Source: Eledone cirrhosa (lineage: Eukaryota). Taken from it: a stretch of 64,000 nucleotides of DNA. The stretch's first letter is position 1; each line of letters starts with the position of its first letter. The stretch covers positions 305,350,001-305,414,000 of the forward strand of contig OZ024742.1 in assembly GCA_964016885.1 (NCBI GenBank), read 5' to 3'. Shown here one piece after another: positions 837 to 61,330 of the stretch. The translations under genes were made by a program, and so were the position numbers. Under the pieces are notes generated by a model that did no database searches, was not told the DNA's origin, and saw only the letters and a program-made list of their open reading frames with translations.

Positions 837-1754
837 GAAAAAAAATATATATATATGCATATATATACATACATACATATATATATATACATATACACAT
901 ACACATACATACATACATATATATACATACGTACATGTATGTATGTATGTATGTATGTATGTATGTATGTATGTATGTATGTATGTATATAGACACGTCC
1001 ACATGTATATTTCGGTTGTCTCACTTATATTATTGTCTTAATATGTAATGTAATGATGTAGATATGTTTAATATATATATATCTATTTATATATATATAT
1101 ATATATTTATATATACATAAATATATATATATATACATATATATATATATATATATATACACAGACACATATATATATGGCCTGGAAGGGAAAACTTGTA
1201 TACATGAGTGACTGCTAGTCTTCCAGAAAAACACCTTGCTTTGGCCTTGGGGGATTAATTTCTAGGTGCAAATCTCATGGCGATTTAAGATCGAGGTGTT
1301 CTTTAACCATCTATGTAACTATCTATCTCTATTATTCTCCCTTTCTGTATCTGTCTCTTTACACACACACACACACACACACGCACACACACACACTCAC
1401 ACACACACGCACGCGCACACACACACATATATATATACATATAAGTATGTGTATATATATATATAAGTATATGTATATAAGTGTGAAAGCAGCGATTCTT
1501 TGCTTAAACTTTAATCTGCTCTTATAATATATATATATATATATATGTGTGTGTGTATATATATACATATATATATATATATATATAGGAATATAAATAT
1601 GTATATGCAAATATATATATGTATATGTATTTATATATATATTTATATATATATATATATGTATATATATGCAATATCGGGGAGCTTCCAACAGCAATGG
1701 TTGCATTTTTTAAGGGTATGTCAATATTTATTTATAAAACTGATCTATATTATA

Positions 1755-1812
1755 TTTTATCTGATGAAAGCACACCATAATTTAACTTGGTGTCCTTGAA
1801 ATATGTATAATG
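1755..1812 (+). ncRNA. Hammerhead-like motif (variant or degenerate) in a (TA)n-flanked ~230-bp element (1671-1900)
   Basis: TTTTAT-CTGATGA-AAGCACACCA(loop)TGGTGTCCTT-GAAA-TATG-T-ATAA. Stem II pairs 9/10. Stem I pairs only if there is no unpaired H17. Confidence 0.45.
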
Positions 1813-2789
1813 AAATAAATATGGTTTTATAAATATAGTTTCCATTTGTTAATATCGTATTTTTATTGTTGTATCCCATCAATTTAAATAGAACTTTTAC
1901 ATATATATATATATATATTTATTTAAATACACTGTGTATTTTTCTATTTAAACCCTCTTTCTCTCTAATACTTTTCCTCCCTCTTTCCTCGCTGTTTAAG
2001 TCTCTCTCCTCACGGTAACTCTCAGTGTCTTTCCCACTTATCTCACAACAGCCAATGCTTTCTCATTGCAGATTGCTATTGCTTGGCAAAATCTCTCAAA
2101 TTACTTAAAGTTTGAATATATATATATACACATATATATATATATAGACTCACACATCTTTCTTTCTCTCTCACTCTCTCTCTCTCTCTCTCTCTCTCTC
2201 TCTCTCTCTCTATATATATATATATATATATATATATATATATATATATATATATATATATAGTTATGTAATAAACAACATAAGCTAATTATTTCATTTA
2301 CCATATATATATATGTATGTGTGTGTGTGTGTTTGCAAGCTTTGTACACCTGTGTAATACACACAATGTAATAGCTATGTAATTGAATATCAAATAGCTG
2401 ACCATATACAACATAAAACTTTGTATGATTGTCATACTTCATGAGTTCAAATTCCGCTCTAGTATTTTCTAACTTTCATATTGCCGGTGACATTAATATA
2501 TGTACACGTAATGTGTTGTGATCGATTATAAGTTCTCAGTCGCCAGGTTTTTTTCTCGCGTTACATTTGGCCTCGTGCCGAGTATAATCAAATCAATATA
2601 TTGTGTGTATAATGTGTATATTATATAGATTGTTGAACGTAGGAGGGTTGTGTATTTTCTCCTCGCTGTTTCCGATTGTTCTCCTTTGACAGACTGACAA
2701 ACATCCCGCATGTCACCTCGTTCTTTCCGTTTTCTTTTGTATTCTGCTCATTCAAGCTCACATTTCTTTAATTCAGAATTTACCCTCTA

Positions 2790-4655
2790 CTGTCACTAAC
2801 ACACTACTACCACCACCACCATCACCCCCGCCTCTGCCGACTCCAACAACGACACCAGCATGAATATCCCCTAGTAATATCAACAACGACACCATCAACA
2901 TCGACTTCTCCAGCACAATCACTACAATCACCACCACCACCACCACAACAACAACAACAACAAAGACCACCTTTACCAACACCATCACACCTAACACTAC
3001 TACCAGCATCATCACAACCACACTATTGCCACCTCCACCACCACCACCACCACCACCACAGCCAATACTATTACCACCATCAACAAAACCACTACAAACT
3101 TCAACGCACCGCCACTACCACCTGCATTACAACTATTACCACCTTCAACACCACCTATAGAACAATCACAAAAGAAAACACCACTAACACTCCCACCTGA
3201 AACACAGTCACCACTAATACCACCATCCCCACTAACACAGCCACGACCACACCAATAATAACAACCTTGACACCACCAGTACCATCACCACAAACAACAA
3301 CATCAACATTACCACCACCAACATCAATATTACACATAACACCAACAATTCCACCACCACAACAACACCATCACCATCACCACCACCACCACTACTAGCA
3401 CCACTACCATCACCACCACCACTACCATCACCACCACCATTACCAGCACCACTACCATCACCACCACCACCACTACCAGCACCACTACCATCACCACCAC
3501 CATCACCATCACCACTACCATCACCACCACCATTACCAGCACCACTACCATCACCACCACCATTACCATCACCACTACCATCACCACCACCATTACCAGC
3601 ACCACTACCATCACCACCACCACCACTACCAGCACCACTACCATCACCACCACCATCACCATCACCACTACCATCACCACCACCATTACCAGCACCACCA
3701 CCATTACCATCACCACTACCATCACCACCACCATTACCATCACCACTACCATCACCACCACCATTACCAGCACCACCACCATTACCATCACCACTACCAT
3801 CACCATTACCAGCACCACTACCATCACCACCACCATTAGCAGCACCACTACCATCACCACCACCATTACCACCACCACTACCATCACCACCACCATCACC
3901 ATTACCAGCACCGCTACCATCACCAGCACCACCACCATCACCACTACCATCACCACTACCATCACCACCACCATTACCAACACCACTACCATCACCACCA
4001 CCATTACCATCACCACTACCATCACCACCACCACTACCATCACCATCACCACCACCATTACCAACACCACTACCATCACCACCACCATTACCATCACCAC
4101 TACCATCACCACTACCATCACCACCATCATCACCACTACCATCACCACCACCATCACCACCACCACTACCATCACCACCACCATTACCAGCACCACCATC
4201 AACAACACAAACAACGTTACCCGCACAACACCTCCAACACCTCCAACACCAGCATGACCACAACAACCAAAATCAATATAATCACCAACACCAACATTAC
4301 CAGCAACATCAACATCAATAACAACAATAATACCAATAGCAACAACATCAGTTACGACCACCAACACCAGCATTAACGTCACCACCACCATCACCAATAT
4401 CAATATTACAACCACCACCACCGCCATCAACATCAACAACAACATTACCACCATGACTTGCACCACAACTAACCCCACAGCCACTAGAAACACCCTTGCC
4501 AATATAGTCTCTTCCATAACTGGGAGCACCTCTACCACCACCAACAGTGTGATCCACCTTTCTTCCACCACCACCACCACCAATAACACTACCACCACCA
4601 CCACCACCACCACCACCATCACCACCACCACCACCACCACCACCACCACCATCTT
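2790..4655. repeat. (CAC)n-derived low-complexity tract with an internal in-phase minisatellite (~3370-4200)
   Basis: Reiterated ACCACTACCATCACCACCACCATTACCAGC-type units; source of the poly-G/V and poly-T/P ORFs. Confidence 0.9.
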
Positions 4656-60167: not shown

Positions 60168-60340
60168 CTGGTACGTCTTAACAGCATTATAGCCCCCCCC
60201 CCCCCGGGCAGATCTTACTGTATAGTATAGTATTTATCAATTGACAGCAAGTCGCTACATACATAAATTAGCATGGGCCCCCTATCCTCGTGGAGCCCCC
60301 GGGCAACTGCCCAGCGTGCCCATGCGTTAAGACGGCCCTG
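60168..60340. mobile_element. hAT-type MITE with 8-bp TSD
   Basis: Right TIR GTTAAGACGGCCCTG; degenerate left TIR CTGGTACGTCTTAAC; TSD AGTGCGTG (60160-60167) / AGTGTGTG (60341-60348). Confidence 0.75.
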
Positions 60341-61157
60341 AGTGTGTGTCTGTTACAATAAACAGTTCCCTCCTTTAAAGTGAAATTAAAACAAACTGAT
60401 GTCTCGAAAGATTTATTTTTCCGTGGGCAGAGCATTTAGGGTTGATATAACATGTTTTAGTGACTTCTTAGATCTTCAACAGACGAAGAGAACAATTTAG
60501 TGTTTTAACTTTATTCATTGTGGTGGGTGTATTAATATATTGTTATACCTCACATGATACTTCACAGGAAACAAACAATTGTATTTCTTTATAAATTACT
60601 GAATTAATTTAAGTCCTATTATATAAATATACATTAGAAGTTGTGTGTGTAGTATCATGTAGTACAAGTGAGAAAGTGAAAGTAGAAATGAGGTAAGATA
60701 AAAAACACTATACAAAAACGTTGCTTGCTGCACACCAACGCAATATATATGGGTATTGTTGGCGAAAGTGAAAATTTGTACATGGTATGGAAGCAGAGTT
60801 TAAATATTCTTGTTTGAAGATCCTGGGCACAGATGACGCTCCAGAATAATAAGGCTCACCATTTATGCATAATAAATTTATATATATATATATATATATA
60901 TCCCCAAAGGGAAAACTCAATCAGACATAGGTGGCCATCTTGGTTTTCCATTTTTCTCATGACAGGCTGAAGAAATTCGGGCACAGAACCCAACGAAACT
61001 TGAGTACCTGTCTATGTCACTGTTGTAAATATATATATATATGTCTGACTGTGTGTGTGTGTGTGTGTGTATGTATGTATGTATATATATATATATATAT
61101 ATATATATATATATATATATATATATATATATATATATATATATATATATATATATA

Positions 61158-61330
61158 AAACAAAAACAATAACAAAGAGTGCAGTACGAACAGTGTTGGT
61201 ATTAGGTTCACACTTGAGAGTGGGGGGGGGCGTTTCGGGCATAAGCCCGTCATCAGGAGAAAGGTGGAAGGAAAAGAGTTCCGAGAGGGTGTGAGGGGTG
61301 AGTGGGGGAAAGACATTAAAAAAGGGGGAA
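61158..61330 (-). mobile_element. Solo PLE pLTR-like element with hammerhead core (NUH lost)
   Basis: - strand CUGAUGA-CGGGC-UUAU-GCCC-GAAA-CG; homologous to 46160-46390; abuts (TA)n. Confidence 0.65.

Follow-up and report, generated by a model that had tools for sequence, protein, structure and literature searches.

The window analysed here is a stretch of 64,000 nucleotides of the Eledone cirrhosa genome (assembly GCA_964016885.1, contig OZ024742.1, positions 305,350,001 to 305,414,000 of the forward strand; coordinates below count from its first letter). It contains about ten credible hammerhead ribozyme motifs and, at positions 21345-24859, one 5'-truncated and broken Penelope-like element (PLE), identified by its motifs and its likeness to published Hydra proteins. 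All counts refer to this single 64-kb window. It has a GC content of 36% and zero N, and perfect simple sequence repeats (SSRs) occupy 6041 bases (9.4%), with AT (2652 bases) ahead of AC (1148) and AG (1050). Tracts of at least six TA units, designated (TA)6+, number 101.

The body of the PLE lies on the reverse strand (21345-24522) and comprises the C-terminal half of a reverse transcriptase (RT), a linker, a GIY-YIG endonuclease (EN), a 3' untranslated region (UTR) and a 337-bp 3' pseudo-long terminal repeat (pLTR; 21345-21681, reverse strand). Repeat comparison revealed an inverted copy of this pLTR on the forward strand (24523-24859; 99.4% identity) that directly adjoins the truncated 5' end. 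At its 3' end, the element meets TA at 21324-21344, and the end of the inverted copy reaches TA only past a 93-bp extension (24860-24952, forward strand), present on this copy alone, which is either a tail or host DNA and is followed by (TC)n(TA)8. The coding remnant (22885-24526, reverse strand) is distributed over three reading frames: an RT piece running from YRDD through the thumb (24526-24080), the CxCX5C linker with the start of the EN (23702-23148), and the C-terminal part of the EN with the order CxxC..E..N..CxH (23160-22885), the CxxC standing before the conserved E and the CxH after the conserved N. The RT-EN frame starts just ahead of YRDD, precisely at the inverted repeat. Twenty-five longer relatives of the RT piece were found among 230 candidates (best E-value 4e-25), the best full-length ones sharing 41-48% identity with it, and a profile built from these 25 relatives matched the three consecutive pieces in their different frames (iE 2e-45, 1.5e-37 and 2e-20). 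The consensus of the relatives has RWK and DKT motifs, the corresponding N-terminal half being missing from the truncated window copy. Only one Cys is found between the GIY and YIG equivalents, and there is no CCHH Cys pair. The open reading frame carries two frameshifts and extra low-complexity stretches, yet only 2 of 337 positions separate the two pLTR copies; the template from which it was copied may have been broken beforehand, or the breaks may be assembly indel errors. Parts of the element were detected in 12 of the 16 sequencing runs among those listed, with a best share of 0.55; no RNA run was listed among those that contain parts of it.

Both pLTR copies carry a type-I hammerhead. 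The one in the 3' pLTR (core 21445; 21396-21450, reverse strand) has one mismatch in helix I and a predicted cut after 21401, and the one in the inverted copy (core 24759; 24754-24808, forward strand) is intact, with the helix III/loop palindrome ATATATAT and a predicted cut after 24803. The hammerhead lies 56-60 nt of element sequence short of the 3' end of the PLE. The two motifs are the two ends of a single element and not separate islands.

Craig et al. (2021; PMC8557442, section 11) give CxCX5C, CxxC/CxH and the lack of a Cys pair inside GIY-YIG as the signature of the Hydra clade, and report hammerheads in Hydra PLEs. The window element has all three traits of this signature in common with Hydra-1_Obim and Penelope-13_HM, along with the order RT then GIY-YIG EN, a type-I hammerhead at roughly 100-200 nt from the 3' end, the (TA)n association and an inverted, 5'-truncated copy at the 5' end, as described for Penelope-13_HM (PMC8557442). 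It differs from Hydra-1_Obim in the sequence of the hammerhead and from the Hydra families in being frameshifted and in its long 3' UTR, into which a SINE-like repeat has inserted (22186-22376). Naiad PLEs, known from cephalopods and other invertebrates (PMC8557442), share the (TA)n bias, 5' truncation and inverted copies, but have an N-terminal EN and no canonical hammerhead, whereas the window element combines a C-terminal EN with a hammerhead. The placement in the Hydra clade is based on protein motifs and by-eye comparison with published Hydra proteins. Four short motifs of the window (one peptide, three DNA) were absent from the supplement of PMC8557442, in which YRDDAL was found; apparently, the element represents an unlisted Hydra-type family.

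The original prediction, made from the sequence alone, had listed about 12 hammerhead-type motifs in the window. The core is present at all 12 positions, as an exact CTGANGA in 11 cases and as CTGGTGA at 5439. Bare CTGANGA cores are weak evidence, since their number on both strands (37) overlaps that in dinucleotide-shuffled sequence (means 22-24, maxima 34-39; 3 x 150 = 450 shuffles, global or local). Adding GAAA and a UH cut site left 15 candidates against 3.2-4.4 in shuffles, and the full type-I descriptor (CTGANGA core, GAAA, UH cut site, helix I score of at least 4 and helix II dG of -0.5 or lower) left seven, against a shuffle mean of 0.06-0.11 and a maximum of 2 in the 450 shuffles. This ratio is indicative, as the thresholds were chosen after the sequences had been viewed; a first, stricter descriptor missed motifs with a bulged helix II and was replaced. 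The seven are 1761, 16066, 24759, 36040, 50275 and 60967 on the forward and 10038 on the reverse strand. Four further motifs are damaged near-misses: 21445 and 46280 (reverse strand) and 36464 (forward strand), which are damaged relatives of other motifs in the window, and 5439 (forward strand), which is doubtful. Six of the 12 predicted motifs therefore pass and four come close (one of them doubtful), while 61256 has no cut site, 11616 fails and 60967 had been overlooked. Within this window the predicted excess over dinucleotide shuffles was borne out for the full descriptor, though not for cores alone. A relaxed scan (no shuffle control) also returned 791 and 25467, equal in quality to 5439, and a scan for the U3-A8 core variant (no shuffle control) gave two weak matches, 56661 on the forward and 27519 on the reverse strand; none of these four was kept. 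An Rfam scan of the window returned no hammerhead among the best 150 of 201 matches, which were miRNA-type matches on hairpins and SSRs.

Could the motifs be chance matches in AT-rich, repeat-rich DNA? The overlap of bare cores with shuffles (37 against maxima of 34-39) would agree with this, as would the individual folds, which are mostly unremarkable (z of -0.01 to -2.3 for nine of ten motifs, 10038 alone lying far above shuffles with z -4.4); moreover, 11616 and probably 5439 are of the chance type. The full descriptor count, the retention of cores in families whose stems differ and the location of one motif inside the pLTR of a verified PLE leave the chance explanation with a next to negligible probability. 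Free folding recovered helices I and II for several motifs. As a set, the type-I hammerhead motifs are mostly real by these sequence measures, self-cleavage being a prediction.

By sequence similarity, the motifs other than the two of the PLE fall into two groups and several singletons. Group F1 comprises three forward-strand motifs: 1761 (1753-1817), in a 241-bp island between TA tracts and with a predicted cut after 1809; 36464 (36456-36522), in a 194-bp island and with a core change from GAAA to GACA; and 50275 (50267-50337), in a 256-bp island, with the perfect helix III palindrome ATGCGCAT and a predicted cut after 50329. Group F2 consists of two reverse-strand sequences, the minimal hammerhead 46280 (46251-46282; 312-bp island, ACGT helix III, helix I of 2 bp only) and its homologue 61256 (61233-61256), 76% identical to it with a 13-nt gap that takes the cut site. 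The weak minimal hammerhead 16066 (16062-16097, forward strand), with only (TA)4-5 nearby, is distantly similar to F2. Similarity z values are 4.3-8.8 within F1, 23 within F2 and 4.3-4.4 for 16066, measured against mononucleotide shuffles and inflated by AT richness. Copies within both groups are unequal in length and far diverged, with conserved cores and differing stems. Four motifs are singletons. Type-I hammerheads 36040 (36035-36079) and 60967 (60961-61012), both on the forward strand, occupy a 523-bp stretch between TA tracts and a 128-bp island, respectively; 10038 (9975-10067, reverse strand) lies within a long imperfect hairpin that starts at an upstream (TA)38; and the degenerate 5439 (5430-5500, forward strand), which ends 27 nt ahead of a long TA tract, has a core mismatch and lacks the second helix III pair. 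Helix I of 10038 extends to about 30 imperfect pairs from the upstream (TA)38 and may be a 5'-junction fold-back. Candidate 11616 (11616-11638, forward strand) was rejected; it has no helix I and a helix II dG of 0.0. At least four unrelated families had been proposed; we distinguish three or more groups besides the singletons, and some of these are related.

Among the ten segments examined, the helix III/loop is a perfect palindrome in 50275, 24759 and 46280, is palindromic at 6 of 8 or 6 of 9 positions in 1761, 36464, 60967 and 10038, and is poorer in 36040, 16066 and 5439. Animal minimal hammerheads occur mostly as single motifs that probably derive from truncated PLEs, and have a palindromic helix III (PMC4209133). 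The window motifs resemble them in the conserved core, the short palindromic helix III, the extra base at the foot of helix II and the occurrence of many families per genome, with motifs mostly single and dispersed. They differ in helix III, which has 4 nt in the published minimal hammerheads and 8-9 nt, as in Hydra, in several window motifs.

Proximity to (TA)n, here meaning (TA)6+ unless stated otherwise, was compared with 25 bystander cores and with 1260 circular shifts. A tract lies within 300 nt downstream of 10 of the 12 predicted motifs but of only 3 of the 25 bystander cores (background 26%), and the median downstream distance of 130 nt was reached in 4 of the 1260 shifts. The upstream association was less pronounced (7/12 versus 7/25, p=0.08; 24/1260 shifts). 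For the seven descriptor motifs the counts were 5/7 downstream (Fisher p=0.005) and 5/7 upstream (p=0.05). The predicted enrichment next to (TA)n was thus recovered on the downstream side; a stronger bias there is what fixed 3' ends and variable 5' truncation would lead one to expect. Tracts on both sides within 300 nt accompany 6 of the 12 motifs and none of the 25 controls; with (TA)4+, the count rises to 8 of 12. As (TA)6+-bounded islands of 150-400 bp, which had been suggested for most motifs, we could recognise 5 of 12, so that 'most' was an overstatement. No (GA)n was found within 300 nt downstream of any of 13 motifs, and (CA)n showed some association (5/13 versus 15%), probably via compound tracts.

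Several arrangements of inserts and TA tracts were also observed. At 35482-36660, three unrelated inserts (a hammerhead-free one and those carrying 36040 and 36464) alternate with four TA tracts, and 60967 and 61256 converge on a common tract at 61030-61157. A lone 36-bp piece embedded in (TA)n (5662-5697, forward strand) is identical to 1821-1857, directly 3' of the cut site of 1761 and 3.8 kb away; counting the TA-like ends, identity is 100% over 42 bp. TA-like microhomology is present at both ends. It is an ultra-short insertion, a template switch during repair or an assembly error.

Besides the two hammerheads that are the ends of the broken PLE, the others are quite probably stranded 3' ends of several older PLE families that inserted into existing (TA)n. 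The solo islands are assigned by inference, from their geometry among other things. Ten of the kept motifs have a tract no more than 300 nt away, and in these the distance from core to downstream tract is 62-262 nt, and the hammerhead-to-3'-end distance we computed from the supplement of PMC8557442 is 87-210 nt in 23 of 24 Hydra rows (leaving out one 5'-end row and one antisense row); the window geometry thus fits stranded PLE 3' ends. The inserts run 23-228 nt beyond the predicted cut to the TA tract, which matches the finding that reverse transcription by the Poseidon PLE begins inside the RNA downstream of the hammerhead, on unprocessed RNA (PMC11167929). That (TA)n serves as a landing site for PLE pLTR remnants, as proposed in the original prediction, is seen directly at 21345-24859 and has been published for the Hydra clade: Hydra families insert at (TA)n in 26 of 27 supplement rows, and cephalopod families are among the (TA)n-targeting PLEs (PMC8557442).

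A number of observations weigh against this interpretation. The set is small, and motifs close to TA may have been preferred in the original selection; the set defined by the descriptor alone performs less well in the shift test (64/1260 downstream, 12/1260 upstream). Motif 10038 has a TA tract upstream and none downstream, and 16066 has no (TA)6+ inside 900 nt. The likeness of F1 to the Hydra-type pLTR is marginal (z 3.2-3.7). A coding element could be connected with only one hammerhead family: searches of the window by profile and by tblastn found no PLE coding remnant besides 22885-24526, two weak tblastn matches lying elsewhere (E 0.017 at 31046 and E 0.88 at 13257). The prediction that the families would link to PLEs held for the element at 21345-24859 with its RT-EN remnant, while the other families have no such remnant in the window. 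Finally, searches of Pfam (the three window pieces and 5 of the 25 relatives) and PDB (one piece and the profile) gave nothing significant for RT or EN.

The sequence of events in such a case may be outlined as follows. A type-I hammerhead is situated in the pLTR, 56-60 nt ahead of the 3' end, as observed in the one complete case. Published PLE biology suggests that the GIY-YIG endonuclease would nick (TA)n and that the RT would prime on the nick and begin to copy the RNA downstream of the hammerhead; purified Poseidon PLE does nick AT-rich DNA (PMC11167929), and a linker zinc finger has been proposed as the cause of (TA)n targeting (PMC8557442). Most copies would halt after 130-500 nt, leaving a hammerhead-bearing end between two half-tracts, and longer copies would retain part of the open reading frame and may acquire an inverted end copy, the architecture present at 21345-24859. 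From the near-palindromic helix III, cutting is predicted to occur chiefly in dimers within tandem precursor RNA, so that the solo motifs are probably passive and inert. The ribozyme is a marker of the elements, whose (TA)n preference need not stem from it.

A direct role of the ribozyme in targeting appears highly improbable. The cleaved RNA would end in (UA)n, pair with nicked (TA)n and prime reverse transcription; in agreement with this, the pLTR motif of 21345-24859 ends in ATATATATA at the predicted cut and F1 motifs end in ATATGTATA, and of the 11 motifs that possess a cut site, 8 would be cut after UA, 24759 ending in (UA)4. However, the inserts do not stop at the cut: a further 23-228 nt (56 nt for the complete element) lie between it and the TA, and these junction positions largely refute priming on (TA)n from the cut end. 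A UA-repeat helix III is absent from most of the other motifs as well as from most published Hydra hammerheads, whose elements nevertheless target (TA)n (PMC8557442), and the hammerhead-less Naiads prefer (TA)n too (PMC8557442). Moreover, the Poseidon PLE does without hammerhead cleavage: its hammerhead mutants insert normally in vitro (PMC11167929).

Alternatively, the short islands might be monomers of non-autonomous hammerhead elements, either non-LTR retrozymes or PLE-derived SINE-like units, mobilised in trans by Hydra-type enzymes. With lengths of 128-312 bp, TA flanking them at either end and no coding sequence, the islands resemble retrozyme monomers, which measure 150-450 bp, carry type-I hammerheads common to PLEs and have a proposed PLE origin (PMC7229834; bioRxiv 10.64898/2026.07.22.740005). 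According to both papers, animal retrozymes form tandem arrays, their defining arrangement, and yield circular RNA, whereas the window motifs lie outside arrays. No hammerhead in the window is part of a tandem array and no head-to-tail hammerhead units exist anywhere in it, contrary to the earlier suggestion of retrozymes; furthermore, F1 and F2 copies differ in length and are far diverged, and the hammerheads are placed mid-island instead of at monomer ends. We regard this explanation as unlikely, and retain stranded PLE 3' ends as the preferred one.

The tandem arrays of the window, at 27677-28280, 5864-6516, 8017-8539 and 3340-4200, have units of about 93, 173, 71 and 12-30 bp, respectively, and none contains a hammerhead. 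Direct repeats of 426 bp with 98.8% identity, located 2 kb apart (30414-30839 and 32442-32867), have no hammerhead either: the cores inside them (30739 and 32767) failed the descriptor, and the longest intervening open reading frame has at most 121 aa.

Mobile DNA in (TA)n tracts is not restricted to hammerhead carriers. A hammerhead-free family has five copies (336-525, 29981-30076, 35649-35760 and 57304-57954 on the forward and 570-719 on the reverse strand). Its two ends are fixed and differ from each other, one of them bears a subterminal hairpin, and every copy touches (TA)n at one end at least; (TA)n thus appears as a shared landing site. Two copies (336-525 and 570-719) face each other over (TA)22 and form a long hairpin. 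The family was tried as a candidate for Naiad ends and rejected, four short motifs being absent from the supplement of PMC8557442, in which line breaks could hide matches. At 44072-44154 and 44737-44819, inverted repeats of 83 bp (90% identity) flank a 270-bp TA-rich tract and form another possible TA-associated element. The SINE-like family, of which the insert in the PLE 3' UTR is one of about eight related copies, was located by a window scan at 8697-8922, 17475-17654, 18861-19058, 19299-19618, 22186-22376, 25735-25860, 29653-29835 and 47094-47600, and has (TA)6+ within 300 nt at only three of these eight places, in contrast to the hammerhead families. This dispersed repeat of about 185 bp may be similar to an octopus SINE. 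No tRNA genes were found in the window.

The original prediction had further connected these elements with the SSR load of the genome, in that they would create or amplify (TA)n, with TA added at insertion or doubled tracts regrowing, and so drive a large part of the load. In its favour, 28 of the 101 (TA)6+ tracts have a kept hammerhead no more than 300 nt away, inserts and tracts alternate at 35482-36660, and the 36-bp piece at 5662-5697 has TA on both sides. Against this, hammerhead-adjacent tracts are no longer than the others (median 20.5 versus 20, p=0.19); TA makes up 44% of perfect SSR bases, and the hammerhead-adjacent TA clusters, with 844 of 2707 TA-tract bases, account for about 14% of the 6041; (GA)n is unlinked to hammerheads; and the hammerhead-free family occupies TA tracts as well. 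Pre-existing targets would give the same picture, and both the chain at 35482-36660 and the 5662-5697 piece fit simple splitting. The connection is therefore not supported by the window, and a causal role in the load seems decidedly improbable. Splitting of existing tracts by insertion is plausible, whereas nothing in the window speaks for the seeding of new ones. A self-feeding loop, in which each insertion of a hammerhead PLE or of the hammerhead-free family splits a tract into two landing pads that are regrown by slippage, is a doubtful but conceivable extension; if true, chains such as that at 35482-36660 would be its product, and insertions would account for the number of as many as a third of the TA tracts. 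Should insertion prove to multiply TA tracts, something the window itself does not show, there would be a testable path by which retroelement activity leads to SSR-rich genomes.

Much of this has precedents. Already published are hammerheads at PLE ends (2014), the abundance of these as single truncated copies, the targeting of (TA)n by Hydra and Naiad elements and inverted 5' copies; the landing-pad idea is in print, and the finding is largely ordinary. The main text of a 2026 octopus repeat annotation (PMC13282606), in the part seen, does not contain the word 'hammerhead'. Beyond PMC8557442 on targeting, we found, within a limited coverage of the literature, no paper linking PLE hammerheads to the birth or multiplication of microsatellites.

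Overall, remains of hammerhead-bearing PLEs can be densely packed in an animal genome rich in microsatellites, as the ten or so credible motifs of this window illustrate. PLE ends that escape protein searches can be traced well by way of minimal hammerheads, and TA markers in microsatellite-rich genomes often abut mobile DNA.

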